DNA from: Gemmata obscuriglobus
Lineage (GTDB): Bacteria; Planctomycetota; Planctomycetia; Gemmatales; Gemmataceae
Assembly: GCF_008065095.1 (NCBI RefSeq)
Contig: NZ_CP042911.1
Span: 1,620,001-1,652,000, forward strand
Reading direction: 5' to 3'
Length of the DNA stretch: 32,000 nucleotides
The notes beneath the pieces were generated by a model that worked only from the letters and a program-made list of their open reading frames with translations, ran no database searches and was not told the origin of the DNA. The position numbers and the translations under genes were made by a program. Numbering within the stretch: position 1 is the first letter of the stretch; each line of letters opens with the position of its first letter. Below, in pieces: positions 13,312 to 32,000 of this stretch.

Positions 13312-13513
13312 GTCCGTAACCCCCAACGTCGCGCTCACGCACGCACAACGGTACAGCGCGGTGCTTCATCCCTTGAATCGACCGGCCGCGGGCCGGTCAT
13401 GAGGATTCTTCTGATTCTGCATGGGGCGAGCACCAGCGAAAGTAATCCGTCAAGACCGGTTGTGCGGGCTGCCGATACAGACTGCGGGCGAAATACGACC
13501 ACCGGGCCGCGTC

Positions 13514-15877
13514 ATGCACACCGCAACCGACCGCGCCGCGCTGCGGCGAACCACTCTCTGGTGCGAGGCCCTTGAGGACCGGGCGCTGCTGGCCACCGCG
13601 GCGCTGGCCGGCGGGGTGCTCACCGTGACCGGGACGGACGGCGACGACCGCGTCCGCATCTTCGGCGCCGGCGGCGCCCTCCACGTGCTCGACGGCACCA
13701 CCGAGATCGGCGCCTTCGTCTCGACCGACGTGACCTCGATCACGGTCAACACCGGGGCCGGTAACGACGCGGTGGTGGTCGACCCGGACGTGACCCAGCC
13801 GGCCGTACTCAGCGCCGGCGACGGCACGAACAAGTTGAGCGCCGGCAACGGCAACACGACGCTGAACGCCGGCGGCACCCGGAACGCGCTGTTCGGCGGC
13901 GACGGGACCAACACGTTCAGCGGCACCGGCGCGGTCAACGCGCTGTTCAACGTGAAATCGACCGACACGGTGCTCCCGGGGGGCGGCACCTTCCTGCTGG
14001 CGGCGCTCCCGCGCGGCGCCGCGGCCCCGGCCGCGCCGGTCAGCCAGCTGACCACCGACGAGGTGAACGCGCTGCTCCAGCGGGCGGCGGCGGCGTCCGC
14101 CAGCTCGGACGCGATCATCGTGGTGACCGACCGGAACGGGCGGATCCTCGGCGTGCGCGTCGAGAGCGGGGTGGACCCGAACATCACCGCCAGCGCGGAC
14201 AACCTCGTGTTCGCGATCGACGGGGCGTACTCCAAGGCGCTGACCGCGGCGTACTTCGCCAACGACCAGGCCCCGCTCACCTCGCGCACGGTCGGGTTCA
14301 TCAGCCAGTCCACGATCACCGAGCGGGAGGTGAACTCGAACCCCAACGTCACCGACCCGAACTCGACGGTCCGCGGCCCCGGGTTCGTGGCGGCGGTCGG
14401 GAGCAAGGGGCACTTCCCGCCGGGCGTCGCGAACACCCCGCAGGTGGACCTGTTCGGGATCGAGCACACCAACCGCGACGGCACGTTCGCGGTCGGCGCC
14501 GACGGGATCAAGGGCACCGCCGACGACCTCCTGCGGGAACTCCGGTTCAACGCCGACCGCAACTCCGTGCTCGCCGGCCAGGAGCTGTTCGTTCCCGACT
14601 CCTACGGGTTCCAGTCGGGGCTGAAGCCCGGCGCGCAGTCGCGCGGGATCGCGACCCTGCCGGGCGGCGTGCCGATCTACAAGGACGGGCACGTGGTGGG
14701 CGGGATCGGCGTGTTCTTCCCGGGCAAGACCGGGTACGCCACCGAGGAGAACTCGTCGCTCAGCAGCACGTTCGACTCGCGCAAGCCGGACCGGACGCTG
14801 GAGGCCGAGTGGATCGCGTTCGCGGCGGTCGGCGGCACCACCGCGAGCGTGGACGGCACCGCGACGCTCCCGGTCGGCGCGCTGGGCGGGGTGACGCTGT
14901 CGAGCCGCTTCGGGCTGCCCACCGGGCGCATCGACCTCGTGGGCATCCAGCTCGACGTGTTCGGCCCGGGGGGCGCGTTCCAGGGCGCCCAGCAGCTCCA
15001 GCTCACGGCCGCAGTGGTCGGCCGCGGGGACCCGAACGACGGGCAGAACCAGCAGGTGGCCGCGAACGGGGCCACGCTCCGCGGCGGCCAGGCGGTGCCG
15101 GACGGGTGGCTCGTCCTGCCGCACGACGGGGACGGCATCCGCGCCGACGAGGTGGTCGCGATCGTGGCCAACGGGCTCCAGCAGGCGAGCCAGACCCGGG
15201 CCGCGATCCGGCTGCCGATCAGCTCGCCGGCGAAATTCGTGTACGCGGTGTCGGACCGCCAGGGCAACATCGTGGGTTTGTACCGGCAGCCGGACGCCAC
15301 GGTGTTCTCGATCGACGTGGCGGTGGCCAAGGCGCGCAACGTGTCGTACTACTCGAACCCGCTCCAGTTGCAGCCGATCGACCAGGTGCAGGGGCTCCCG
15401 CCGGGCGTGGCGATGACGGCCCGCACGTTCCGGTACCTGGCCGAGCCGCGGTTCCCCGAGGCCATCGACACCGCGCCCCCGGGTCCGTTCTCCCAGCTCA
15501 ACGACGACCCGGTGAACACCAACCGGTTCACCGGCCGGCTGGTGGGGCAGGCGCTGCCCGCGTCGGCCTACCAGAGCGTGCTCGGGCACGACGCGTTCAA
15601 CCCGGGCACCAACTTCCACAGCCCGTTCAACCTGCTGAACCAGAACGGCATCATCTTCTTCCCGGGCAGCTCGCCGCTGTACACGGCGGGGCTCCTGAAG
15701 GGCGGGTTCGGGGTCAGCGGCGACGGCGTGGACCAGGACGACGTGGTGACGGTGGCCGGGGAGAACGGGTTCAACGCCCCGGTGGGCGCGCGGGCCGACC
15801 AGTACCTGGTGAACGGGGTGCGGCTGCCGTACCAGAAGTTCAACCGGAACCCGGAGGGCGGGCTGTTCACCGATTGA
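13514..15877 (+). CDS. Secreted multidomain protein: N-terminal LEDRxLL motif, RTX-like 9-residue Gly repeats, two GlcG/HbpS-like (DUF336) domains
   Basis: ATG 13514 (MHTATDRAALRRTTLWCEALEDRALLA). Nonapeptide-period repeats follow: SAGDGTNKL/SAGNGNTTL/NAGGTRNAL/FGGDGTNTF/SGTGAVNAL. The DUF336-like signatures are AIIVVTDRNGRILGV...LPGGVPIYKDGHVVGGIGVFFPG and FVYAVSDRQGNIVGLY...GLLKGGFGVSGDGVDQDDVVTVAG. Confidence 0.7.
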   Translation: MHTATDRAALRRTTLWCEALEDRALLATAALAGGVLTVTGTDGDDRVRIFGAGGALHVLDGTTEIGAFVSTDVTSITVNTGAGNDAVVVDPDVTQPAVLSAGDGTNKLSAGNGNTTLNAGGTRNALFGGDGTNTFSGTGAVNALFNVKSTDTVLPGGGTFLLAALPRGAAAPAAPVSQLTTDEVNALLQRAAAASASSDAIIVVTDRNGRILGVRVESGVDPNITASADNLVFAIDGAYSKALTAAYFANDQAPLTSRTVGFISQSTITEREVNSNPNVTDPNSTVRGPGFVAAVGSKGHFPPGVANTPQVDLFGIEHTNRDGTFAVGADGIKGTADDLLRELRFNADRNSVLAGQELFVPDSYGFQSGLKPGAQSRGIATLPGGVPIYKDGHVVGGIGVFFPGKTGYATEENSSLSSTFDSRKPDRTLEAEWIAFAAVGGTTASVDGTATLPVGALGGVTLSSRFGLPTGRIDLVGIQLDVFGPGGAFQGAQQLQLTAAVVGRGDPNDGQNQQVAANGATLRGGQAVPDGWLVLPHDGDGIRADEVVAIVANGLQQASQTRAAIRLPISSPAKFVYAVSDRQGNIVGLYRQPDATVFSIDVAVAKARNVSYYSNPLQLQPIDQVQGLPPGVAMTARTFRYLAEPRFPEAIDTAPPGPFSQLNDDPVNTNRFTGRLVGQALPASAYQSVLGHDAFNPGTNFHSPFNLLNQNGIIFFPGSSPLYTAGLLKGGFGVSGDGVDQDDVVTVAGENGFNAPVGARADQYLVNGVRLPYQKFNRNPEGGLFTD

Positions 15878-19321: not shown

Positions 19322-19396
19322 GGTGGCTGTAGCTCAGTTGGTTAGAGCGCCAGATTGTGGATCTGGATGTCGCGGGTTCAAGTCCCGTCAGTCACC
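19322..19396 (+). tRNA. tRNA-His (anticodon GTG) with genomically encoded G-1; no encoded CCA
   Basis: Cloverleaf read by hand. The acceptor stem is GTGGCTG/CAGTCAC and the D arm is GCTC-AGTTGGTTA-GAGC. The anticodon arm is CCAGA-TTGTGGA-TCTGG and the T arm is GCGGG-TTCAAGT-CCCGT. The discriminator is C73, opposite an extra 5' G at 19322. Confidence 0.92.
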
Positions 19397-19410
19397 CTGA
19401 ACGAAAGACG

Positions 19411-19674: not shown

Positions 19675-19748
19675 GTGCCCGTAGCTCAACTGGATAGAGC
19701 GTCGGCCTCCGGAGCCGAAGGTTACAGGTTCAACTCCTGTCGGGCATA
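19675..19748 (+). tRNA. tRNA-Arg (anticodon CCG); no encoded CCA
   Basis: Cloverleaf read by hand. The acceptor stem is GTGCCCG/CGGGCAT (G1-U72 wobble) and the D arm is GCTC-AACTGGATA-GAGC. The anticodon arm is TCGGC-CTCCGGA-GCCGA and the T arm is ACAGG-TTCAACT-CCTGT. The discriminator is A. Confidence 0.9.
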
Positions 19749-19752
19749 CTAG

Positions 19753-19782
19753 AAAACCCCTGGGAAACCGGGGTTTTTTTTA
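19753..19782 (+). terminator. Rho-independent terminator after tRNA-Arg
   Basis: The stem is cccc(t)gg-gaaa-ccgggg and it is followed by a run of 8 T. Confidence 0.75.
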
Positions 19783-20145
19783 TTTGCACCGCGGTCCGAG
19801 TGATGGTCGCCGTACCAAATTCCGTACTAAACCGTCCTTGTTTTGCGGGATTGACGGCGCTGGCGCCTTGGATCGGTGTGCCGCCCTCGGCCTACGGACG
19901 TAGACGCTCTCAAGCGATAGATTACCCTCGGTCACCGACCGAGAAGCAGGCGGGAATCCCCTCTCGGCAGGCTGTCTGGCTCTGCGGTCAAGCTCCGGGT
20001 ATAAGCGTCCGAGCGAGATCGGCAGCAGCGGTCGGCACCCGCAGCCCAACGGTGCCAGAAGGGGCGTACTCGGCTCCGAATCGGTCACGCGGGCAATGTG
20101 TCCAAGCGGCAGCACGAGACCGGCAAGAGCCATGAGGTTGCGAAG

Positions 20146-21159
20146 ATGTGGCCGGATACGCCCTTCGAAAAACAGCTCAAGACAGCCCTGAAAAAAATCA
20201 ACGCGCGCGGCGACGTGCTCGCGGGGAACTTCGCGTCGTCAAAAAAGTTCCTCGTTGAGAACGTCTACGAAGAGATCAAACGCGAAGAACGGCACTTGAG
20301 CGACCACGGGCCGCGGCACATCGTGAACGTCTTGGAGAACATCGGGACACTTCTCGGAAAAGAGTACGGTGGCTTCTCGCCCGAGGAGATGTACTGCCTC
20401 GGGATGATCACCCTCTTCCACGACGTCGGGAACATGTACGGCCGCAAGGAGCATCAGGACAAGATCAAGCAGATTTACACGAGGGCAAGGGCGGGAGCAA
20501 ACGAGGACAAGAGCGAGAGGGTGATGGTCCTGATGGCGGCGAAGGCCCACACTGGCGAGGCATCGGACGGGAGCAAGGACACGCTCAAAGATCTTGATAA
20601 TCGTTACTATTTTCAGGGGAGCATCGTTCGGCTTCAGGAAATCGCGGCTATCTTACGGATGGCGGACGAGCTTGCCGAAGGGCCGCAACGAACCTCCCGA
20701 TTGGTGCTGGAGACGCACGGCTACGATGAGAGTAGCCGCATCTACCACCGCTACGCGACGTGCGTCCACGTCAGCATCGACCGCGAGCGAGGTCTCTTCG
20801 CCTTGGACTACCACTTTGCGGTGGATCCGAACGCCGGAGACATTGAGTCGGCTCTTGCGGATATCAAAGAGCTTATAGAATTCTCATACAAACGACTCCT
20901 AAAGCTAGACCAGGAGCGAAGTTATACAAAGTTTTACTGCCCTGCTCTCAGCCCGTTCAAAGCCTCCTCGGCCACGTACCGTTTCTGGATCGGAGACGAC
21001 GAGTGTGGGACGAGACTCCCGGCGCTCTACGTTGACGACAAAGTTGTGCCGGGGGTGAATGCCCGTAGCGTGCCGCAGATCAACCCGCTGTACGAGCCGG
21101 CAACCATAATCGAACAACTGCGAGGCTCGATCCAGCAAAGGAATGGGGGTGTCGCATGA
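20146..21159 (+). CDS. HD-domain metal-dependent phosphohydrolase (candidate effector)
   Basis: The ORF is open from GTG 20098. ATG 20146 has a GAGG motif 9 nt upstream, so I prefer it. The HD signature is DHGPRHIVNVLENIGTLL...MYCLGMITLFHDVGNMYG...ILRMADELAEG. The ~150-aa C-terminal part is unrecognised. The stop overlaps the next start (ATGA). Confidence 0.75.
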   Translation: MWPDTPFEKQLKTALKKINARGDVLAGNFASSKKFLVENVYEEIKREERHLSDHGPRHIVNVLENIGTLLGKEYGGFSPEEMYCLGMITLFHDVGNMYGRKEHQDKIKQIYTRARAGANEDKSERVMVLMAAKAHTGEASDGSKDTLKDLDNRYYFQGSIVRLQEIAAILRMADELAEGPQRTSRLVLETHGYDESSRIYHRYATCVHVSIDRERGLFALDYHFAVDPNAGDIESALADIKELIEFSYKRLLKLDQERSYTKFYCPALSPFKASSATYRFWIGDDECGTRLPALYVDDKVVPGVNARSVPQINPLYEPATIIEQLRGSIQQRNGGVA

Positions 21160-22877
21160 GCACGTCAAACCCTTTCCAGTACGAGGCTGCGAACAACCTG
21201 TCGCCGAGCATGATCGCGGCGTTCTACGTCGAGGATTTCAACTTCTCTCGCGTGATTCAGTCCAAGCGGAACATCTTCCTGGTGGGAGAGCGCGGATCGG
21301 GCAAGACGATGACCTTGCTTTACAACTCGCTTCGCGTCCGCTTGGCGGCCGGAGGCAGGGACGCAAAGTCGCTGGAGATGATCGGGGTGTACATCCCCTG
21401 CAACACGCCCCTTGTTCACCGAAAGGAGTACCAACTACTCAATGAGATCCAGGCCGCCGCAATCTCCGAGCACTTCCTGGTGCTGACGGTAATTTACAAC
21501 ATCGCGGATACTTTGAACGAAGTCCCCGATACCCTCGACGGTGTCAAGCAGAAGGATCTGCGGTCGGATATCGAGTACATACTCGGTATCAAGCTCCGTG
21601 ACACTGTAAACCTGTACGAAGGGATCAGGGAATGGGCCCAGAAGGACATCGTTGCCACCCAGCGCCACATCAATCAGCCGAAGTCTGACTTGTTCTATGA
21701 CAATTGTCTGTCTTTTGCCTCCGGCGTGATGCCCTTGCTGGGCTGCATTCGCAAGATTCCGGTGCTTAAAGACTCGCACCTCATGCTCATGATGGACGAT
21801 GCTCACGACCTGAACGAGCATCAGGCGAGGTCACTGAACTCGTGGATCGCCTACCGCGACCATTCGGCTTTCAGCTTTAAGGTGGCAACCGCGAAGGTCG
21901 GCAAGCCGGACTTCAAGACGACGTCGGGAGGCGCGGTCCTCGAAGGGCACGACTTCACAACGATCGACATGGAGCAGCCGTTCCAGACCGCGTCCTCCGA
22001 CTTCGGGAAGATGTCGGCGAGCATCATCGATCGCCGGCTCAAACGTTGCGGGATTGAGAAAGGTGCGGCGGAGTTCTTTCCCGTAAGCCCACAGTTCGAT
22101 GCCGATATGCGGAAGTGCCACGATCAGGTGAAGGTGCGGGTGGCAAAGGAGCACCCGGACTGGTTGCCGTCGCGGGTGCAGGACTACGTCTACAAGTTCG
22201 GCCGTGCCGAGTACTTCCGAACCCGGTCGCCCAAAGCGAATCGTCCCACCTATTCGGGCTTCGACACGCTCGTGTACCTTTCCACGGGTGTGATCCGTAA
22301 CCTGCTGGAACCGTGCTACCTGATGTACGACGCCGTGCAATCGCGGCGGCACGACGGGGCGGCCGGAGCGGCGCCGACGGAGATTCCCCCGGACGATCAA
22401 TGCGACATCATCCTGCGACAAAGCGAAGCGATGTGGGCAAGGCTGAAGGAAGGTCTCGACAGATCCATTGACGGATGCTCTTCGAAGCAGGCGCGGCAGA
22501 TCGTAACGCTCTTCGAAAAGCTGGCGATGTATTTCCGCGTTCGGCTACTCAACCACGAGTCGGAACCGCAAGCCAACTCCTTCAGCATCACGGGAATGAC
22601 GGAGGCAATTGAGTCCGAACTCTCACCCCTGTTGATGATTGCCCGCAAGGCACAGCTACTTTACATGCGGTTCGGGCCAGCCAAGGCGGGCGGCTTGCGT
22701 GAGGCCTACTACGTTCCGAACCGGATGCTATGGCCGAGCATCGGCTTGGACCTGCACGGACAACACGCCCGCGCATCGCTCAAGGCCAAAGACCTGCTGG
22801 CAGCGAGCAACGGCACGGACATCCCGGTTAAAAAGCCGGACGCCGCGCCTGAACAGCGGGGGCTTTTCGATGAGTAA
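21156..22877 (+). CDS. P-loop NTPase (ORC/Cdc6- or STAND-like AAA ATPase), family unassigned
   Basis: 573 aa. Walker A is NIFLVGERGSGKTMTLLYNS and Walker B is HLMLMMDDAHDL. The ~330-aa C-terminal region is helical and unrecognised. The gene shows 4-nt start overlap with the HD gene and 8-nt stop overlap with the next gene. Confidence 0.75.
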   Translation: MSTSNPFQYEAANNLSPSMIAAFYVEDFNFSRVIQSKRNIFLVGERGSGKTMTLLYNSLRVRLAAGGRDAKSLEMIGVYIPCNTPLVHRKEYQLLNEIQAAAISEHFLVLTVIYNIADTLNEVPDTLDGVKQKDLRSDIEYILGIKLRDTVNLYEGIREWAQKDIVATQRHINQPKSDLFYDNCLSFASGVMPLLGCIRKIPVLKDSHLMLMMDDAHDLNEHQARSLNSWIAYRDHSAFSFKVATAKVGKPDFKTTSGGAVLEGHDFTTIDMEQPFQTASSDFGKMSASIIDRRLKRCGIEKGAAEFFPVSPQFDADMRKCHDQVKVRVAKEHPDWLPSRVQDYVYKFGRAEYFRTRSPKANRPTYSGFDTLVYLSTGVIRNLLEPCYLMYDAVQSRRHDGAAGAAPTEIPPDDQCDIILRQSEAMWARLKEGLDRSIDGCSSKQARQIVTLFEKLAMYFRVRLLNHESEPQANSFSITGMTEAIESELSPLLMIARKAQLLYMRFGPAKAGGLREAYYVPNRMLWPSIGLDLHGQHARASLKAKDLLAASNGTDIPVKKPDAAPEQRGLFDE

Positions 22878-23751
22878 CACCGAACTTTTCGTCACGATGG
22901 CGAGCTGGGAGGAGCGTTTCCTACTAGGCGCGCGGGAGGTCTTCAGCCAAGACGCACCCCGCAAGGCGATCATGTACTACGCGCGGGAGAACGCGGCGAA
23001 TTCGCAAGAGAATCGAGATGGATTTGAGGAGCTTTGCGAGGGGCTGCATGTACAGGTGAAGACCCGAGAGGTCTCGTTCGGATCGCCAGCCGACACCTGG
23101 CGATCACTGCAGGCCGACCTTGCGAGCCAAACGGTCGCCGCGAGCCGGGCGACCGTAGATATCACTACGATGCCGCGGGACATCATCTGGCTGACCTTCT
23201 CATTTCTGAAGGAGGTTGGGTGCGAAGTCAATTACGTATACCACAAGCCCAACTCTTACAACAAGGACTGGCTCAGCCGAGATCCTGATCGACCGCGGCT
23301 GGTTTACAAACTGTCCGGTGAAGCCCGCCTCGGCTGCCCAACGACGTTGATCGTCCTTACGGGGTATGATGTCCGCCGCACAGAGCAACTTATCCGCTTC
23401 TACGAGCCGAAGACAGCATTTCTGGGCATTCAGACGGGCAGCCAATATGGCAACCAGTCGAAAAACACGGACGTGCATGCACCTTTGATTTGCCCGGACG
23501 GGAGCGTGGAGCGGTTCGATGTCGATGCCTACTCGGCAGACAGGGGACTTGCTGCTATCCGAGCCAAGCTCGAGGGCTGCATTGACGACAGCAACGTAGT
23601 TCTCAGCTCGCTGGGGCCAAAGCTGTCTGCCGTCGCGCTATTCCAGCTACACCAAGCCTTCCCCCAGGTGGCGTTAGCTTACGCACCCTCTCAGGAGTAC
23701 AACATTGACTACTCCTCTGGGATCGGTGAGACTGTACGTGGCCAGCTCTGA
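22870..23751 (+). CDS. Hypothetical protein with a Rossmann-like alpha/beta pattern (CARF/Csa3-N-like or SLOG-like?)
   Basis: ATG 22870 lies inside ORF 22639..23751, and ATGAGTAA overlaps the upstream stop. The protein is 293 aa with no TM segment or signal peptide. It shows alternating strand and helix segments ([15 protein letters not shown]..., [59 protein letters not shown]). Confidence 0.6.
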
Positions 23752-23759
23752 GCCAAATC

Positions 23760-24980
23760 ATGGAAGATCAGACTATCGAGGGCGTGCGGTCGCATTTCAC
23801 AGCGGCTGACCTGTTTGCCGGAGCCGGCGGACTTAGCCTTGGCTTCGAACAAGGCGGAGCCACAATCGTGTTTGCGGTGGAGCGAGATGCAAATGCAGCT
23901 CGCACATACCGCGCAAATCGCACCGACGTGAAACTGTTTGATAGGGATATTCGAGAGCTAGACCCGGCCACTTGCATGACGTCGGCGGGCATTAAGTCCG
24001 GCGAGCTTTGTGTGTTGATTGGTGGTCCACCGTGCCAAGGATTCTCAGAATCAAACAAGCGAACGCGAACGCTGGAAAACCCTAACAATCACTATTATTT
24101 GGAGTATTTTCGTTTCCTTGCAGCGTTGCAGCCGCAGTGGTTCGTCATCGAAAACGTTGCCGGCTTGAAAACTTTGGCGGGTGGCGCGTTGCTCGATCGG
24201 ATCGCAGAGCAGGCGGATCAGTTGGGGTATACGGCGAGTTGCCTCCAGCTTGAGGCATCCGCGTTCGGGGTACCACAAGTGCGGCGAAGGTTGTTTATCG
24301 TCGGGAACCGCCTTCAGTTGCCCATCATAACCCCGCAGCCAATCTTCGGCGAGGGCTTGGCCAAACCTGTGACTGTTCAAGAGGCGATCGGCGACCTGCC
24401 TCGATTGAGCGCTGGGGCTGCGATCGACATTCTGCCCTACCCTAGCCGCTCCAAACTATCCGACTACCAGTTGCGGATGCGGCGAGGTTCCGTGTCTGTT
24501 CAAGGCAACCTGGTCACAAAAAATTCACCACTGGTGCTGAAGCGGTACGAAGTCATTCGGCCTGGCCAGAACTGGGAGTCGATCCCGAACCGCCTTCTGA
24601 AGAACTACAGCGATGCTTCTCGGTGTCATACCGGTATTTACTACCGGCTGGTAGCCAACCAGCCTTCGAAGGTGATCGGCAACTTCCGCAAGAACATGCT
24701 TATCCACCCCTCTCAGCACCGGGGGCTCTCGGTGCGCGAGGCAGCGCGCATTCAGTCTTTCCCCGACGCCTACCAGTTCACGGGAAGCATCGGGTTCCAG
24801 CAACAACAGGTCGCTGACGCGGTACCGCCCCTTCTGGCAAAAGTCGTCGCCCAAATGATTCTAAGTTCGATGCTTCAGTTGCCTCCTGGCAACAAGCAGG
24901 CAAGGCACCGCTCACTAGGCCGTGGAAGTAGAACAAAAGGCTCGCGGAAGTCGGCCCGCAGGGCGGTTGGGGTTCGTTGA
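23760..24980 (+). CDS. DNA (cytosine-5)-methyltransferase
   Basis: The motifs are all present. Motif I is [12 protein letters not shown] is GGPPCQGFS and VI is FVIENVAGL. Motif VIII is [12 protein letters not shown] is [16 protein letters not shown] and X is ADAVPPLLA. The gene starts 8 nt after the upstream stop. It has an unusual ~40-aa Arg/Lys-rich C-terminal tail. Confidence 0.92.
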
Positions 24981-25047: not shown

Positions 25048-25983
25048 ATGGAACAGATCGAACGCCCCGTCGTTCCGGCCCTCGACGCGATCCTCGGCCA
25101 GCAGTTCAAGGTGCTGGACAACGGGTTCGTCCGCGTCGTCGATTACATGGGGTCGGATGACTCGATTGTGCAGGCGGCCCGCGTTTCCTACGGAAAGGGA
25201 ACGAAGAAGGTTTCTGAGGATCGCGGCCTGATCCGGTACCTCCTGCGAAACTGGCACACCACGCCGTTCGAGATGTGCGAGCTGAAGCTTCACGTCCGTG
25301 TTCCGATGGACTGCTGGCGGCAATGGATTCGACACCGCACGGCCAACGTCAACGAGTACTCCACGCGATACTCCGAAGCGATCGATGCCGCACAGGTCAC
25401 TGCCCCCGATGGATGGCGTAGCCAATCCTCCGCAAACCGTCAGGGTAGCGCGGGAGTACTCGACACTGCAATCGGCGAAGAACTAACGGCAGAAGAGGAG
25501 CGGCTCCTGAAGCACAGCCGCTCAGTGTACGAGAAGCGGCTGTCGGCTGGGGTAGCCAGAGAGCAGGCCCGCAAAGACCTCCCTCTGTCCACCTACACCG
25601 AGGCCTATTGGAAGGTGGACCTCCACAACCTCTTCAACTTCCTTCGCCTGCGGATGGACGCGCACGCCCAGCTTGAAATTCGATCCTACGCCACGGTGAT
25701 CGGGAACGAGATCGTAAGCCGCTGGTGCCCGGTGGCGTGGGAAGCGTTCGTCGATTACCGACTCAACTCTGTGGCCCTGTCACGGCTGGAAATCGAGGTG
25801 ATTCAGGCGCTTGCCGGCAATAATGTGGCCGGAGCGGTCCGCCTCGGGATCGAAGCCGGCTTGCTGGACGAGAACGGATCGCCATTGAAGCAGAGTCGTG
25901 AACGCGGAGAGCTGGAAGCGAAACTAGCCCGGCTCGGCATCGCCTGCCCGTGGGCTCAACCTGCAGTGCAGTCAGCACAGTAA
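25048..25983 (+). CDS. thyX: FAD-dependent thymidylate synthase ThyX
   Basis: The ThyX motif is RHRTANVNEYSTRY (RHR-x7-S). N-terminal family pattern: FKVLDNGFVRVVDYMGSDDSIVQAARVSYGKG...LIRYLLRNWHTTPFEM. At 311 aa the protein has a C-terminal extension compared with minimal ThyX proteins. Confidence 0.9.
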   Translation: MEQIERPVVPALDAILGQQFKVLDNGFVRVVDYMGSDDSIVQAARVSYGKGTKKVSEDRGLIRYLLRNWHTTPFEMCELKLHVRVPMDCWRQWIRHRTANVNEYSTRYSEAIDAAQVTAPDGWRSQSSANRQGSAGVLDTAIGEELTAEEERLLKHSRSVYEKRLSAGVAREQARKDLPLSTYTEAYWKVDLHNLFNFLRLRMDAHAQLEIRSYATVIGNEIVSRWCPVAWEAFVDYRLNSVALSRLEIEVIQALAGNNVAGAVRLGIEAGLLDENGSPLKQSRERGELEAKLARLGIACPWAQPAVQSAQ

Positions 25984-27080
25984 CGCACTGGCTCATCATC
26001 TCTCGTGAATTACTGGAGGCGGCCGGCTGTGCAGCCTTGCTTGGCCTGCGGCCATTCCCTGCCCTGCCTTTCCTTCCCGTCGCCGTCGGTCGCGTTCGAC
26101 ATGCCCTCCCTGCCTTGCGCGCCGTCGGCCGTCGGGATGTAGTATCGCTGGGTTCCATCCATCCCCGCGATGCGGAGCCCGAGAGGCCAGAGGCGCGTGC
26201 GTGGGATGGTTTTCTCGCGCTACGCTTGAGGTCAGAGGGGGCAGCGGAGTGGGGTTCTTCTGCTCTCCGCGAGGTTGCTGACTCGCCCGCCTCGGCTTTG
26301 AACGGCACGCCCACGGCGCGGGGCGCGTTAAGCTGGTCTCACGAATCGCGGTAAGCTGGCGACCGCCAACCCAACTTGGCGAACCGATTACGGCCGCCGG
26401 TCCTGCTACAAAGCAGAGGCCGGGGGCCGTTTCCCGTTTGAAGACGGAGGTTGCCATGCCAGAGGGCCTCGCGCGGACGCTGGGCACGACGATGGTGTTG
26501 CTCGTCACCGAGTTGGAGGCGTAACTCGATCGGGATCAACCCGACACCACGTGAGTGATTTCGGGTGGTCTACTCCCGGGCTCTTACCGGGAACGGGGTC
26601 GAATCGCCTCCCTCCATTCGATCGCACCCGTGGAATCGTACGTAAATGCCCTTTTCACGCCGATTCGCCCCTCCCGGCTGGGGCAGCTGCTCCTCGACCC
26701 GTACCGCGTCTCGCAACCCGGTTTCCGGGCCAGTACGATGGTGTCCGCTCGCCCTCCTTCCCTCAATGCCCTTTTTCACGCACGACGTTGTCCGCCTGCG
26801 TCGGCCTCGGAGGTTCTGCGAACCTCATTCGATTCGATTAGAGGTCCACGGTCGAGACAGCGAACGAGCCAACGCCCATGAATTTCGTTCCCGTGACGTG
26901 CCCCGCCACGGTGCGTGCGCCTGATCGGCCGTGCCTCCGCGCTCACCGACACGGGATTCCCGTTTCTTTTCCGTCATCCGGGCCTTTCGATCGTGCTGCT
27001 TTCCGTGCCACCGGTGACAGGGCACTGATTCACAACGGTTTTGGGGCCCAGGGCCCCGAGCAGGTTTCTGGCCGCGCGCG

Positions 27081-27089
27081 TTATCCACA
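27081..27089 (+). promoter_or_regulatory. Consensus DnaA box TTATCCACA
   Basis: An exact 9-mer match to the consensus, located 11 nt upstream of the AT-rich stretch. Confidence 0.6.
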
Positions 27090-27100
27090 GGCCCGGCACG

Positions 27101-27150
27101 TTACAACAAGTTACAGTATAAATCGTTAGATTTATAGTTAAGTAAGTTAG
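27101..27150. other. AT-rich DNA-unwinding-element candidate
   Basis: The sequence is ttacaacaagttacagtataaatcgttagatttatagttaagtaagttag. It contains repeated AGTTA submotifs and is by far the most AT-rich 50 bp of the window. Confidence 0.6.
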
Positions 27151-27194
27151 CCGACCCACAACGCCTTGAACGGTCGCAAGAAATCGGGCCTCCG

Positions 27195-27282
27195 TGCGCC
27201 TGATCGGCCGTGGGTGCTGCGTCTGATCGGCCGTGCCCACTTGCGCCTGTTCGGCCGTGCCTCTTGCGCCCGATCGGCCGTG
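27195..27282 (+). repeat. Four tandem 18-bp iterons at 23-24-bp periodicity
   Basis: The four copies are tgcgcctgatcggccgtg (27195), tgcgtctgatcggccgtg (27218), tgcgcctgttcggccgtg (27242) and tgcgcccgatcggccgtg (27265). A fifth, identical copy lies at 26916-26933. Confidence 0.85.
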
Positions 27283-27386
27283 CCCGGGGATGGTTCTATG
27301 GATAACTCGGCAACGGCCGCCCGGTCCGGACGTGCGGGAGCACTCGCGGACCGGGACGTGGGCGGGTACGAGCGGGAAGCGTACGC

Positions 27387-28319
27387 CTATTCGGCCGTGA
27401 CTGCCTGCGCGAGTGTGAGGGCCGGCTCGGCGATTGTTGCCTTGGCGTGCCGGTGGCGCGCCCGCGGGGGTTGGAATCGTGGGTCCGCGGGCGGCAGGTG
27501 GCAGCGCGGGAGGAACGTCACTACCTCATCTTCGGCGGTGCGGTGTACCGCCAGTGCGTACTCGGGCAGGCTATCGGCCTCGACCACCTTGCGCACGTCC
27601 AGGGCGAAGTCCGAGAACCGGGCCGCCGAGCCGGACTTGGCGTACAGCTGGCGCATGGTGAACGTCCACCCGGCCGGCTGCGTGCCGGCGTGCTTGCGGG
27701 CCACCCGGTACAGCCACCGCTCGATCCCCCCGGTGAGCAGGAAGTAATCCTCGTGGATGGTCAGCACTCCGCCCTTGGCCACGATCCCGGTGTACAGCCA
27801 GTCGGGTAGGGTCATGGTCATGTGCGCGGTCTCCCCGGTGGCCTCGTTGACCTCCTCGGTCCACGATTCGAGCCAGTGGAACGAGGCCGATTTCTTCTTC
27901 CCCTGCACCCGGATGTTTGTACTCACCGCGGTGTGTGTCAGCCGGTTCAGGGCCTCGCGGAGCCGCCGATAATGGTCCCCGCCGACCGACCGGCGGACGC
28001 TCTTGAGCAGGTTGTACGGATGGAAGTGGATGACCCGGGACGGTGCGTGTCCTCGGTCCAGGGCCTCGGTCACCTGGGTAGACGCCCAGATCAGGATGTC
28101 CGCATCCCAGATCGACGCCATCCCGAACTTGGGGTTGGCCGTGACCTCGACCCACACGTCCCCGACCTGGTACTCGATGGGCGCCAGCCGGGGCTTCTTG
28201 GACAGGCTGAAGAACGGCCGCTCCATGGTGTCACGCTGGTCGCGGATCGGGATGTCGGCGAACGTGCCGGCGAACAGGTCGGGCTGGTGGTCCCCCTTGG
28301 GGTGGTGGCGCTTGGACAT
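27387..28319 (-). CDS. repA: Plasmid replication initiator protein A (RPA/RepA family)
   Basis: The ORF is open to TTG 28361; I prefer ATG 28319 (MSKRHHPKGDHQPDLFAG...). Family-like N-terminus: IPIRDQRDTMERPFFSLSKKPRLAPIEYQVGDVWVEVTANPKFGMASIWDADILIWASTQ. It is adjacent to the iterons. Confidence 0.8.
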   Translation of the reverse strand: MSKRHHPKGDHQPDLFAGTFADIPIRDQRDTMERPFFSLSKKPRLAPIEYQVGDVWVEVTANPKFGMASIWDADILIWASTQVTEALDRGHAPSRVIHFHPYNLLKSVRRSVGGDHYRRLREALNRLTHTAVSTNIRVQGKKKSASFHWLESWTEEVNEATGETAHMTMTLPDWLYTGIVAKGGVLTIHEDYFLLTGGIERWLYRVARKHAGTQPAGWTFTMRQLYAKSGSAARFSDFALDVRKVVEADSLPEYALAVHRTAEDEVVTFLPRCHLPPADPRFQPPRARHRHAKATIAEPALTLAQAVTAE

Positions 28320-28401
28320 GGGCCGGATGATAGCGCGACCCGCGGCGGACGCAAGCGACAATTACTCCCCGTCTGTCCCGCAGGCGAGCTCCACTTTTCA
28401 C

Positions 28402-28430
28402 GAACGCAGGAATTCCGGAACGCCCGAATT
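28402..28430. promoter_or_regulatory. Two tandem copies of a 13-bp GAACGCCnGAATT-like motif upstream of repA
   Basis: The copies are gaacgcaggaatt (28402-28414) and gaacgcccgaatt (28418-28430), in the gap between the parG-like stop and the repA start. The same motif recurs upstream of parA. Confidence 0.55.
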
Positions 28431-28766
28431 CTACTTATCCAGTTTGCGTGCCTTTTCCCAAGCGTCGAGGGCTTCAAACAGTAATTCGTTGAGCCGTAGG
28501 TCGGCGGTGGCGGCGCGTTGACGGAAGCGGCGACGGAAAGAAGGGGGCACCTTAAACGAGAGCGACGTCAGGTCCGCAGTCGCCACTCGCTCAGCCATCC
28601 GCTTGCTCTCGGTTGACGGCTTCGGCTTGGCCACGGGGGGCTTGAGAGCAGGCTCAATGGGCACTGGAACCGCCGGGGCACGCTGCACGGCTTCGGGCAT
28701 TGGGGCTGCCACATCGGCCGTGAGGGAGGTGAGCTGATCGTAGTTAATCATCGGGCGCTTGTTCAT
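28431..28766 (-). CDS. ParG-like ribbon-helix-helix partition/centromere-binding protein
   Basis: 111 aa. The N-terminal half is disordered and Pro-rich. The C-terminal RHH-like segment is LSFKVPPSFRRRFRQRAATADLRLNELLFEALDAW. Its start overlaps the parA stop (ATGA). Confidence 0.6.
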   Translation of the reverse strand: MNKRPMINYDQLTSLTADVAAPMPEAVQRAPAVPVPIEPALKPPVAKPKPSTESKRMAERVATADLTSLSFKVPPSFRRRFRQRAATADLRLNELLFEALDAWEKARKLDK

Positions 28767-29437
28767 GCCGCCTGCCCTCCCGTGCGGACTTTTTCGCTTT
28801 CGTGCGTGCGCTCTTTCACGGCGCGCCAGATGCCGGCCAGTTCGGTGACCGCTTTCCCTTCGGGCTCGATCTCGAACGCAGTTTTGCCGTGGGCGAAGCT
28901 CTCGGCGTAGACGACTCGTTCATGCATCCGGGCGGGAATCACCAGGCCCAGGGTCTCCAGCGCTATTGCCACCCCTTCATTGTTGCGCAAGTTGGGTCGA
29001 ACCCGGGCGAGGACGAATTGGAACGGGCGGCCCGAGCGCTTAATCATCGGTAGTCCTTTGACCAGTGCCCGCATATCGGCTGGGGTGGGATTGAGTGGGA
29101 TCAGGATCAAATCGGCGACGGCAAACAGCTCTGCATTGACGGTGCCGACGGAGGGGGCGGTGTCGACGAACAGGTAGGATGCGCCAGCGGCGGTCAACTG
29201 GTCGACGGTGGTGCGCAGAGCGGCCAAGTTCAGCGGAGCGTAGCGCGGGGTCTCGAGACCGCCTTTGCGGCGCTCGTTGAACCAGTCGGCGGTGCTCGCC
29301 TGGGGGTCCGTGTCAGACAGCACGACGGGGCCGTCGCCGCAGGTCTCGGCGGCGACGGCCAAGTGGGTGGTGAGGGTAGACTTCCCCGATCCACCTTTTT
29401 GGTTGGCAATCACGATCGTCTTCATAAGGCCGACCAT
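28763..29437 (-). CDS. parA: ParA-family partition ATPase (small, type Ib-like)
   Basis: The deviant Walker A is IANQKGGSGKSTLT, followed by DTDPQAS and Walker B LFVDTAP. Start candidates are ATG 29437 and ATG 29425 (MKTIVIANQKGG). Confidence 0.88.
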   Translation of the reverse strand: MVGLMKTIVIANQKGGSGKSTLTTHLAVAAETCGDGPVVLSDTDPQASTADWFNERRKGGLETPRYAPLNLAALRTTVDQLTAAGASYLFVDTAPSVGTVNAELFAVADLILIPLNPTPADMRALVKGLPMIKRSGRPFQFVLARVRPNLRNNEGVAIALETLGLVIPARMHERVVYAESFAHGKTAFEIEPEGKAVTELAGIWRAVKERTHESEKVRTGGQAA

Positions 29438-29748: not shown

Positions 29749-32000
29749 TCATTTCGGCGCACCGAGGATGATGAGGAGATCCCGGCTCGTGTAATCGAGA
29801 ACGCCATCGAGGTGCAACTGTACGGGATCGACGAGGACGTCGGTCACGCATGGCTTCGAGGTCAGATTGGCGACACGGATGATGACGTAGGTTCCGGACT
29901 TCGGGTCACCGTGGCACCCCTGGGCCACCTCCCACTCGTTCGTCGTCATCTCGAACACGCTGCCGCCGTCATGCGCGGACGACTTCACCTCGATGAGGCA
30001 GCGTGGCATGATACGAGAACCTGCGAGAGCGCCGGTGACGTCGTCATAGGAGAAGTCATAGCCTAAGGTATCGTTCCCAGCGCTGAACCCGAAGCGCTCC
30101 CTGCCTTTCGACAGCCAATTCGTCAGGTCAAAGTCCGGACACAGCGCCTTCAACTGCTGGTAGACGAAGTATTCGCCGACGGCCCCGAGGACTGCGAGGT
30201 AGTCCTCTGACACGCGCGTCCGGGCGCCTCCTCCACTGCCCGCGCCGGGTCGGCCCCGCTTCGTGGGACGTTGCACTGCGCCGCGGGACACCGAGCGGAT
30301 GGCTGCGAGATTGAGAGCGGGGTTGACTGCCGCTTCCAGGTTCTGTGCGACCGTCCCGGCCGGCCCCTTGGCGGCGGAGGTTTCGAAGTCCTCGCGCGTC
30401 CAGCCGGCGCTGAGGACGTTGAAGGTGGGTTTCGGCGGTGCCGGGGCGGGCGGTGCCGGGATGTCTCCCAGCTCCTCAAATTTCTTCCAGAGTGATCGCC
30501 AGTCCTCGACTTCCCGGAATGCAGACCGCTCCTTCATTCGTGCGGCCGTGCGCGGGGCCGCGGCCTCGAGGGCGTCCCGAACGGCGGCGATGACGGCCAC
30601 GCGGTTCCCCCAGAAGCCCTGGCTCAGCAGCGTCACCAGTGCGTGCCCCGTGATTGCCGCGGGGTCGATCGTTTCTTCGAACTTCGGCGCGAGCTCGCCC
30701 GCCACCTTGAGGACGATGTTCACCGCGTCTCCCGCCTGCTGCGCTCGAACGATCTCGTCGTCCCGCTCGTAGATGCCCGCTGACTTGTCCGGTTCATCCT
30801 TCAGCTTGAGAGCGGAGAGTTCCGACGGTGGCGACTCGGAGAGCTTGCGCAGCGGATCGACGAGCTGCGCGGCACCCGCGACGGTGGGGCGGGGCGCGGC
30901 GAGCGCGAGGGCATCACGGGCGACGCGGCCGACAATCGCTTCGGGGTTGAGGGTCTCCTCGGCGACCTCCGTAGGCACCGCGAGCCGACGAACGTCTCCC
31001 ACCCAGCCCGCCACGTCGTCCGCGAGTGCTGCGGGCACTGTCGGGCCGGAAGATCGCGGGACGACGAGGTAGGCGAACCAGGCCATCAAGTGACCCGCGA
31101 CGGCATCGCGGGCGGATGTGTAGTGGCGCTCGGAGGGGGCGAAGCGCCACCGCGGCTCGCCGAGCTTCGTGCGAGCGCTCTGCCAGACCGCGACCGAGAG
31201 CCCCAGACCCTTCAGGAGCGACAGCGATCCTTGCGGTTCGTCCACGCGTGATGCCGTTTCCAGGCGCACGTGCAAGTCGGGCCAAGCGAGCCACGCGCTG
31301 GCGGTCTCGGGCGAGCGGGCATGCTGGGACCACTCCCGCCGGAAGTCGTCGAGCGTTCCGTCCGGGTGATCGCGGTCCCAGAGCGCGAGGCAGATCGGTT
31401 GGAAGTGCCGCAGACGGCGCTCGAAGCCCAGGCCGATGGCGACTTTCACCTCCATGCGCTCGGTCGCAGTGGTCCCATAGTCCTGGAAGAATTGGTCACA
31501 GGCACCCGCGCGGAGTTCCTGTGCGTAGGCGGTCCAGAGAGGGCGATACGACGTTCCGAGCAACTGCCAAGTCTCGCTGACGACCTCGTGCGGTGCCAGC
31601 GTGGAATCCACGAGGAGGGCGGGGCCGCCGGCACGCTGCGCATCGAAGCAGGCGCGTTCGGACATCGTGCCCTCGAACCTGCCGCGGATGAGGCTCGTCC
31701 GCGAGAACAGACGCCAGGCGGCGCGGAACGCCTCGTCGGTCGGTAAGGTCGCCTGGGTCGCGCCCTTGAGAATCAGCAGCGCGAGATCCTCCGCCACCAG
31801 CCGCTCCGGAACGGTATCTCGCAGGTAGTCGACGAGGGGAACGCCATGCGCGAGCGGGTTGAAGGGCACGTCGATCGGAAGCTCGCTGACACGGGCCACC
31901 CGCGTTGACCCCAAGAGCGTGCGCAGGGCGTTCACGAGTTCGCGATACGTGTGCTGGAAGCGCCTCGGGAGAACCCACGCCTCCCGGAAACCCGCGACGT
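29749..32000 (-). CDS. DUF3883-domain (PD-(D/E)xK restriction-endonuclease-like) protein; 5' end outside the window
   Basis: The C-terminus matches the DUF3883 pattern: VGEYFVYQQLK...LGYDFSYDD...CLIEVKSSAHDGGSVFEMTTNEWEVAQ...GTYVIIRV. The reading frame stays open upstream of the ORF-track start (GTG 31935) to position 32000 (...VAGFREAWVLPRRFQHTYRELVNALR), so the gene is probably longer. Confidence 0.7.
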   Translation of the reverse strand, partial: VAGFREAWVLPRRFQHTYRELVNALRTLLGSTRVARVSELPIDVPFNPLAHGVPLVDYLRDTVPERLVAEDLALLILKGATQATLPTDEAFRAAWRLFSRTSLIRGRFEGTMSERACFDAQRAGGPALLVDSTLAPHEVVSETWQLLGTSYRPLWTAYAQELRAGACDQFFQDYGTTATERMEVKVAIGLGFERRLRHFQPICLALWDRDHPDGTLDDFRREWSQHARSPETASAWLAWPDLHVRLETASRVDEPQGSLSLLKGLGLSVAVWQSARTKLGEPRWRFAPSERHYTSARDAVAGHLMAWFAYLVVPRSSGPTVPAALADDVAGWVGDVRRLAVPTEVAEETLNPEAIVGRVARDALALAAPRPTVAGAAQLVDPLRKLSESPPSELSALKLKDEPDKSAGIYERDDEIVRAQQAGDAVNIVLKVAGELAPKFEETIDPAAITGHALVTLLSQGFWGNRVAVIAAVRDALEAAAPRTAARMKERSAFREVEDWRSLWKKFEELGDIPAPPAPAPPKPTFNVLSAGWTREDFETSAAKGPAGTVAQNLEAAVNPALNLAAIRSVSRGAVQRPTKRGRPGAGSGGGARTRVSEDYLAVLGAVGEYFVYQQLKALCPDFDLTNWLSKGRERFGFSAGNDTLGYDFSYDDVTGALAGSRIMPRCLIEVKSSAHDGGSVFEMTTNEWEVAQGCHGDPKSGTYVIIRVANLTSKPCVTDVLVDPVQLHLDGVLDYTSRDLLIILGAPK

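Follow-up and report, generated by a model that had tools for sequence, protein, structure and literature searches.

A C5 cytosine DNA methyltransferase (hereafter methylase) and three partner proteins form one co-inherited gene cassette in the planctomycete Gemmata obscuriglobus, and the same four genes recur side by side in bacteria from more than 15 phyla. The cassette lies in a 32,000-nucleotide (nt) stretch of contig NZ_CP042911.1 (positions 1,620,001 to 1,652,000, assembly GCF_008065095.1), which we analyzed at full length and call the window. The partners, referred to below as the trio, are an HD-CE phosphohydrolase, an ORC/Cdc6-like AAA+ ATPase and a stand-alone tandem-CARF protein. 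Real and well delimited, the module couples a methylase to its partners in a non-classical way, and the link between the methylase and the trio is strongly supported. Judged from its sequences, it looks like a candidate anti-phage system and not like classical restriction-modification (R-M). Its genes occupy the following positions:

20146-21159, + strand: HD-CE phosphohydrolase gene, GobsT_13910 (337 amino acids, aa), predicted effector
21156-22877, + strand: ORC/Cdc6-like AAA+ ATPase gene (573 aa), predicted nucleoside triphosphate (NTP)-driven sensor or switch
22870-23751, + strand: stand-alone tandem-CARF gene, GobsT_13930 (293 aa), predicted nucleotide-ligand sensor
23760-24980, + strand: C5 cytosine DNA methyltransferase gene (406 aa), partner of the trio

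Adjoining genes of the trio overlap: HD and ATPase share 4 nt, and ATPase and CARF share 8 nt (22870-22877). The CARF gene ends with a TGA at 23751, followed by the spacer gccaaatc and the methylase ATG at 23760, so that the gap is exactly the 8 nt given in an earlier annotation of this DNA, which we refer to as the original prediction. A simple site scan found no promoter-like or plus-strand terminator-like sites between the cassette genes. One gene boundary needs revision: the HD gene had been started at the GTG at 20098, which opens the longest reading frame, and a start at the ATG at 20146, which gives a protein identical to the deposited GobsT_13910, is more likely.

The methylase and the trio are one module

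A pattern scan of 185,579 species genomes, one genome per species, recovered 77 loci, 67 of them with the full trio. In 65 of these 67, the trio has as its immediate same-strand neighbor an orthologous C5 methylase (45-62% identical by tblastn to that of the window). In the other two loci, the methylase is cut by a contig end (L024) or the contig ends before the position where it could be assessed (L035). The methylase usually precedes the trio, with the order methylase-HD-ATPase-CARF in 57 loci, and follows it, as HD-ATPase-CARF-methylase, in eight loci and in the window. The original prediction joined the methylase to the trio and would have been refuted if homologous trios usually lacked one; the 67 loci show the opposite, and the association holds through the change in gene order and into distant clades. 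Every related locus that can be assessed has these four genes side by side, so this adjacency is far above what chance would give.

The four proteins also share an evolutionary history. Correlations between their matrices of pairwise identity are r 0.77-0.80 inside the trio and r 0.49-0.55 between the methylase and trio members, and none of 500 permutations reached values as high. Agrobacterium salinitolerans and Yoonia plasmids carry distant relatives of the cassette, with an ATPase only 24% identical to that of the window. The order in this plasmid clade is methylase, HD-CE, ORC-CDC6-like ATPase and a fourth gene of the same CARF family (hhalign probability 98%). Across the distant plasmid clades and nine contigs of the viral database IMG/VR, the set is kept together with ATPases 24-41% identical. 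We conclude that the methylase, HD-CE protein, ATPase and CARF protein are one obligate, co-inherited module, since the methylase adjoins the trio wherever the position can be assessed.

The contigs in IMG/VR provide a second view of this linkage. Thirteen of them carry a methylase at least 45% identical to that of the cassette, and nine of the 13 also carry diverged HD and ATPase genes, most with the CARF gene as well. Among methylases at 34-40% identity, the trio accompanies only one of 68 (L080, 44% by tblastn). On four contigs (L084, L086, L089 and L090), a methylase with 47-48% identity to that of the cassette is solitary, and genes for the HD, ATPase and CARF proteins are absent within 6 kb; phages may use these methylases to modify their own DNA and so escape the system. 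That the methylase is an independent orphan, or a gene of some other system that landed next to the trio by chance, is almost certainly wrong: nothing beyond the absence of a cognate endonuclease speaks for it, and it is refuted by the recurrent adjacency, the two gene orders, the distant clades and the way in which the trio tracks only the closer viral-contig methylases.

The module is mobile, horizontally transferred and patchily distributed. Its carriers include Planctomycetota, Bacteroidota, Acidobacteriota, Chloroflexota, Verrucomicrobiota, Desulfobacterota, Gemmatimonadota, Gammaproteobacteria and Chlorobiota. We also considered a phage origin for the trio and rejected it: the trio has no PHROG family, tblastn with the ATPase against 50,697 GenBank phage records found no match, and the flanks of one IMG/VR contig held no phage hallmark genes.

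A complete methylase with a near-constant recognition region

The methylase had been described as a complete Dcm-type enzyme. This description stands, as the protein matches PF00145 end to end (E 2e-59) and TIGR00675 dcm and has the catalytic motifs. Of 66 cassette methylases, 65 cover the columns of motif I (FxGxGG), motif IV (PC92), motif VI (E131-N-V) and motif VIII (Q173xR175xR177), and in these 65 the motifs do not vary. Motif X reads A-D-A-V-P-P in the window in place of G-N-A-V-P-P, and 15 of 66 orthologues have the same variant. In PADLOC, the protein matches Type II, DrmMII and DruM methylase models. Its closest solved relatives by sequence are the catalytic domains of eukaryotic DNMT1 (E 2e-38), ahead of M.HaeIII and M.HhaI, and the DNMT1 match includes part of the region after motif VIII.

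The target-recognition region of the enzyme (residues 260-320) is as conserved as its catalytic core in 66 orthologues. The methylase is also the best-conserved member of the cassette: its median pairwise identity is 0.52, and those of the trio are 0.46 (ATPase), 0.37 (HD protein) and 0.34 (CARF protein). In the plasmid clade, where the ATPase has fallen to 24% identity, the methylase including its recognition region is still 46% identical. Such conservation, which persists where the trio has diverged, suggests that all members of the family methylate a single fixed motif; ordinary R-M systems differ in this respect. CpG depletion, looked for as a trace of CG methylation, is absent from the window, where the observed/expected ratio is 1.22.

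The original prediction also drew attention to an Arg/Lys-rich C-terminal tail. The tail is present, with 12 Lys or Arg in the last 52 residues, but the basic stretch, which makes up the last ~30 residues, is not conserved: cassette orthologues extend a median of 18 residues past motif X, and the longer tails among them are unrelated in sequence. One orthologue from the Pirellulaceae is also basic-tailed, again with an unrelated sequence. As it is lineage-specific and unconserved, we rejected the tail as a feature of the system.

The trio comprises a phosphohydrolase, an AAA+ ATPase and a predicted nucleotide sensor

The HD protein matches Pfam family PF24391 HD-CE (E 3e-27, 96 bits against a cut-off of 27). 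The residues of its metal-binding H...HD...D set (H54, H58, H92-D93, H103, H135 and D174) are invariant in 40 homologues. A profile search of the PDB found no meaningful solved relative by sequence for this protein, for the ATPase or for the CARF protein. The AlphaFold2 model of the HD protein (predicted local distance difference test score, pLDDT, 89) gave weak Foldseek matches to domains of PPX/GppA (best E 2e-3) and to cyclic-nucleotide phosphodiesterase entries, and no Cas3, Cas10 nuclease or SAMHD1-type protein was among the 50 structural neighbors listed. The protein also weakly matches a PADLOC Cas10 model, in the N-terminal portion of that model (E 0.007). On the strength of its family and conserved residues, we describe the protein as a divergent phosphohydrolase with an intact predicted metal site. 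Its earlier description as a nuclease finds no support here, given the HD-CE family match and structural neighbors that, weak as they are, are small-molecule phosphohydrolases. The HD-CE name reportedly goes back to a 2023 survey in NAR by Nicastro, Burroughs, Iyer and Aravind, which is said to predict nucleotide-degrading immune effectors.

The second protein matches PF24389 ORC-CDC6-like over almost the whole profile (E 1e-106, 358 bits, positions 1-568 of 571). Its Walker A (G44-x-R46-G47-x-G49-K50) and Walker B (D214-D215) motifs are invariant in 16 homologues, and at least 1082 relatives, about 50% identical across phyla, are present in databases. The HD protein and the ATPase both lie far above the thresholds of PF24391 and PF24389, so these families were built from such proteins.

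The third protein had been described as a Rossmann protein. More exactly, it is a tandem CARF protein, as seen with PADLOC, AlphaFold2 and Foldseek. It is 100% identical to GobsT_13930, has no Pfam family and matches the PADLOC model 'CARF6--CARF_CARF_CARF' over nearly its full length (E 7e-35). We take the 'CARF6' label to refer to the 2020 CARF census of Makarova et al. in NAR. The AlphaFold2 model (pLDDT 94) has two Rossmann-like halves, and the top Foldseek matches in the PDB, all with a probability of 1.0, are the CARF domains of Cam1, Csa3, Can2 and Csm6, which span one half apiece. The protein has the canonical CARF motif D97-x-T99-xxx-R103, of which D97 and R103 never vary; W13, E14, R16 and F17 in the loop after strand 1 are invariant too, and the second half has equivalent conserved loops (G165/D167/R170 and S247/G249/P250/K251). 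The fold, the structural matches and the conserved loops in both halves identify the protein as a stand-alone tandem CARF, that is, an intramolecular pseudo-dimer.

We also looked for fusions within the CARF family. Among the best 150 of 1146 CARF-family representatives there is only one long protein, P0455, a metagenomic sequence of 810 aa with GNAT acetyltransferase and class I methyltransferase domains after its tandem CARF. Whether this fusion is genuine or an error of gene calling, a single case is not informative.

Thymidylate synthases and Vsr recur beside the cassette

A gene for a FAD-dependent thymidylate synthase follows the cassette in the window:

25048-25983, + strand: ThyX gene, long form (311 aa), 67 nt past the methylase gene

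The protein matches PF02511 (E 9e-51) and TIGR02170 thyX (179 bits against a cut-off of 88). Its G+C content at third codon positions (GC3) is 0.74, which marks the gene as part of the low-G+C island that carries the cassette. In 12 of the 67 loci, as in the window, the gene right next to the cassette encodes a thymidylate synthase, which takes three forms. Seven loci from several phyla (L025, L035, L040, L048, L051, L054 and L058) have the long form, a ThyX of about 300-312 aa with some 80 C-terminal residues past the Pfam Thy1 domain, and these proteins are 53-78% identical to that of the window. In most of these loci the long ThyX is more conserved with respect to the window than the adjacent trio proteins are, which argues that it travels with the cassette. 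Three loci have a short-form ThyX. In the remaining two, L036 (7081-7941, Flavobacteriales) and L070 (12656-13627, Gallionellales), the gene encodes ThyA, the classical enzyme, which is unrelated to ThyX and in one of them overlaps the start of the methylase gene. ThyX is also found beside the Agrobacterium plasmid cassette and on four viral contigs. Because a genome has one or two such genes among thousands, we infer that the adjacency is far above chance. The presence of ThyA in place of ThyX is a non-orthologous replacement of an accessory gene, and it argues for a functional link to the synthesis of thymidine monophosphate (dTMP).

Other neighbors also recur. Twelve loci encode Vsr within 6 kb of the cassette, and nine have a second C5 methylase. 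The genes near the cassette at other loci include extra methylases, HsdM, Schlafen/AlbA_2, AAA_15/AAA_21 and AbiEii, of which the last four groups are typical of defense islands. No endonuclease, helicase or nucleotide cyclase recurs among the neighbors in the 67 loci. Separately, a 618-aa AAA/STAND-like ATPase with weak AAA_22 and nSTAND3 matches is encoded a few kb from the cassette in L022, L023, L038, L046 and L054, mostly in Bacteroidota.

The cassette differs from named defense systems

We compared the cassette to systems with which it shares components. Like Type II R-M, it has a complete C5 methylase, but it lacks the cognate restriction endonuclease (of PD-(D/E)XK, HNH, GIY-YIG or PLD fold) that defines that type, and the specificity of its methylase appears fixed across phyla and not diversified. 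Scans with Pfam, PADLOC and NCBIfam found no endonuclease domain in any of the five proteins of the island. Together with a tblastn search using cassette-linked Vsr, which found nothing below E 0.7 in the window, they bear out the earlier view that the operon has no classical restriction enzyme, Vsr, McrBC or HsdR. Although Vsr stands beside the cassette in a dozen related loci, the cassette of the window is thus not a Dcm-Vsr pair. BREX, DISARM and Druantia, multi-gene defenses that also lack a classical endonuclease, likewise combine an obligatory DNA methylase with an ATPase and further proteins, and two of the methylase models matched above, DrmMII and DruM, come from this group. However, their signature proteins (PglZ, BrxC, DrmA/B/C and DruA-E) are not matched by the trio or ThyX in PADLOC. 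More broadly, the HD, ATPase and CARF proteins match no model of a named anti-phage system above cut-off in PADLOC-DB v2 and NCBIfam (June 2026), apart from the CARF accessory model. Neither database lists the four genes as a system, and PADLOC assigns the HD protein and the ATPase to no known or candidate defense system. The trio has no NCBIfam family, and the sub-threshold P-loop matches are far from their cut-offs (NF053860, 16 bits against 370; NF047389, 20 against 75).

The cassette does belong with the HD-CE/ORC-CDC6-like conflict families, as both proteins of the window match these families, have intact sites and are encoded by adjoining, overlapping genes. It also has features of type III CRISPR signaling, in which Cas10 makes cyclic oligoadenylates that act through Csm6, Can1/2, Cam1 or Csa3. 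The CARF sensor fold is shared, Cas10 also has an HD domain, and the gating of an effector by a nucleotide ligand is a common logic. In contrast, the cassette has no Cas10, CRISPR RNA machinery or cyclase, its CARF is not fused to an effector and its DNA methylase is obligatory. Apart from the weak Cas10-model match of the HD protein, no Cas10 or other cyclase was found in the island proteins or among the recurrent neighbors. The third protein resembles CARF clade 6 in its model match, CARF fold and ligand-loop motifs, but it is stand-alone and tandem and lies beside neither CRISPR-cas genes nor a cyclase.

A looser parallel is the PUA-Calcineurin-CE-HAD (PUA-Cal-HAD) system, which reportedly responds to m6-dAMP derived from the host methylase Dam and depletes deoxynucleoside triphosphates (dNTPs) (preprint PMC12871103). 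By analogy, the two may share a 'CE' effector, at least in name, a nucleotide trigger derived from the methylome and dNTP depletion. That system uses host Dam and a PUA sensor, whereas the cassette brings its own C5 methylase, CARF and HD proteins.

A literature search, whose reach did not extend to the Makarova 2020 CARF census or to Nicastro 2023, found no paper that describes the cassette. It is not mentioned in Kaur 2020, Makarova 2014, a 2026 BREX survey or a 2025 preprint on modularity. As far as we can tell, the cassette is of a kind that has been catalogued by computation and is experimentally uncharacterized.

Candidate mechanisms

The evidence leans toward action at the level of nucleotides, because the third protein has the nucleotide-sensor fold of CARF proteins and because a thymidylate synthase recurs beside the cassette. 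We favor, with a little less than even confidence, the reading that the cassette is a methylation-coupled immune module. The methylase would write 5-methylcytosine (5mC) at a fixed motif on host DNA as a self mark, and the AAA+ ATPase would be the NTP-driven component, a sensor or switch, that reacts to invading DNA without the mark. The tandem CARF would bind a nucleotide ligand and gate the response. The HD-CE protein would then hydrolyze phosphoester bonds, most probably in deoxynucleotides (the pyrimidine pool of dNTPs and monophosphates) and not in DNA, so that phage replication stalls. Among the accessory proteins, thymidylate synthase would buffer or restore host dTMP, and Vsr would repair T:G mismatches that arise from the module's own 5mC.

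This self-mark reading draws on the obligate linkage and co-inheritance of the four genes, their overlaps and short gap in the window, their intact predicted active sites, the CARF fold, the HD-CE family match with its phosphohydrolase neighbors, the recurrent thymidylate synthase and Vsr, the defense-island neighbors and the mobile context. Several points weigh against it. The structural matches of the HD-CE protein are weak and its substrate is predicted, while HD nucleases do exist. The role of the ATPase as a reader of methylation state is our inference, the CARF sensor has no obvious source of ligand, and the role given to thymidylate synthase is a rationalization. The recognition region of the methylase is almost constant across phyla, although marks of self and non-self normally diversify. 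Finally, we found no published experiment on any member of the cassette.

Two close rivals, each one step away from the self-mark reading, are unlikely in our estimation, and computation cannot separate the three. One takes the cassette as a self-contained alarm on the methylome. The methylase would provide no protective mark but would seed host DNA with 5mC, and degradation of the chromosome by a phage would free 5-methyl-deoxycytidine nucleotides, absent at other times, as the ligand of the CARF protein. Its later steps, which we likewise consider doubtful, would be assembly of the ATPase and depletion of nucleotides by the HD-CE protein, as an abortive or static defense. Such a system, in which the CARF senses 5-methyl-deoxycytidine nucleotides, the HD-CE protein collapses the pyrimidine deoxynucleotide pool and thymidylate synthase serves as metabolic immunity, is improbable as a whole. 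It would explain why a CARF sensor is present with no cyclase or other signal-making enzyme conserved nearby and why the methylase is the most conserved component. A recognition region that stays constant while the trio falls to 24% identity fits a source of signal precursor, a role in which nothing would select for a new specificity. The recurrent thymidylate synthase and Vsr link the cassette to pyrimidine deoxynucleotide metabolism, and the trigger and dNTP depletion reported for PUA-Cal-HAD set a direct precedent (PMC12871103). However, the CARF structures matched here bind cyclic oligoadenylates or A2>p and not mononucleotides, and the ORC/Cdc6-like ATPase has no clear role. The four solitary methylases on viral contigs are also better explained as evasion of methylation-sensitive restriction, which favors a self mark.

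The other is true restriction, the idea put forward in the original prediction. Cas3 and Cas10 have HD domains that cut DNA. In the cassette, the ATPase and HD protein would form an NTP-dependent nuclease acting on DNA that lacks 5mC, and the CARF protein would be only a regulator; we give this little credence. The strict linkage to a methylase, the weak resemblance of the HD protein to Cas10 and the solitary orthologous methylases on some viral contigs are in line with it, and ORC/Cdc6-like ATPases are reported as recurrent in DNA-capture defense systems (PMC12839542). Against this, the HD protein belongs to the HD-CE family and nuclease HD domains are absent from its listed structural neighbors. 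The cassette has no helicase or translocase motor, and restriction leaves both the recurrent thymidylate synthase and the CARF sensor unexplained.

Much less probable is a non-immune role, in which the cassette serves mobile elements in epigenetics or nucleotide hygiene. The methylase would modify the genome, the trio would sense and clear 5-methyl-deoxycytidine nucleotides set free by DNA turnover, and thymidylate synthase and Vsr would manage the consequences for the pool of T and 5mC, a part that we rate as equally remote. Vsr, ThyX and ThyA do all concern C5-methyl pyrimidines, and the conserved specificity region of the methylase agrees with such a role. The trio, however, evolves fast relative to the methylase, the distribution is as patchy as 77 loci in the whole genome set would indicate, and the islands and plasmids that carry the cassette also have other defense genes close to it, all of which are hallmarks of conflict systems. 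An AAA+ switch would also be unneeded for sanitation of a nucleotide pool.

The interest of the cassette lies partly in its sensor. CARF sensors are understood almost entirely through the cyclic oligoadenylates made by Cas10 of CRISPR systems. In the cassette, a CARF goes strictly together with a DNA methylase, an HD phosphohydrolase and a predicted AAA+ switch, and no enzyme that would make a signal accompanies them; what this CARF binds is therefore directly testable. If the alarm reading is true, that ligand would be the first for a CARF that is a mononucleotide and does not come from a cyclase. The strict methylase linkage, near-constant recognition region, fast-diverging trio and recruitment of three forms of thymidylate synthase make this an unusual immune architecture, one that links DNA methylation to deoxynucleotide metabolism. 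Experiments are feasible, because there are cultured carriers, among them G. obscuriglobus itself, Metapseudomonas otitidis DSM 17224, Bacteroides oleiciplenus YIT 12058, Runella defluvii and Pontibacter amylolyticus.

Genomic setting in Gemmata obscuriglobus

The cassette lies in a block of foreign composition. The G+C content of the window is about 70% and drops to 57-61% within a block at about 19-26 kb. GC3 is 0.64-0.78 in four scored genes of this island compared to 0.77-0.98, mostly at least 0.87, in the genes upstream, and we therefore regard the block as horizontally acquired. The features around the cassette are:

19323-19397: tRNA-His, just upstream of tRNA-Arg (ARAGORN, Rfam)
19675-19749, + strand: tRNA-Arg(CCG), at the left edge of the low-G+C island (ARAGORN, Rfam)
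19758-19783: terminator-like hairpin, directly after tRNA-Arg (simple site scan)
27387-28361, - strand: RepA-type replication initiator (PF10134, E 2e-80), downstream of ThyX
within 27387-29437, - strand: ribbon-helix-helix protein, downstream of ThyX
28763-29437, - strand: ParA/MinD-type ATPase, downstream of ThyX
29749-31935, - strand: 728-aa protein whose sole Pfam match is a C-terminal NOV_C (NO VEIN C-terminal) domain

The RepA, ribbon-helix-helix and ParA genes are the backbone of an integrated plasmid-like element. Six copies of a 22-nt direct repeat (TGCGCCTGATCGGCCGTGCCTC-like) lie at 26916-27403, and four of them, just past the 3' end of the minus-strand RepA gene, are in tandem at 27195-27286 with a spacing of 23-24 nt; they look like plasmid iterons or an origin. 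With these genes and repeats, the cassette probably rides on an integrated plasmid-like element beside tRNA-Arg, the right end of which is past the window. No attachment-site direct repeats were found flanking the island. The 728-aa NOV_C protein may be further cargo of the same element.

Two proteins encoded well upstream of the island have host composition. One, of 674 aa (11314-13338, - strand), has no Pfam family, and the other, of 818 aa (13421-15877, + strand), has a C-terminal HbpS-like haem-degrading domain alone.

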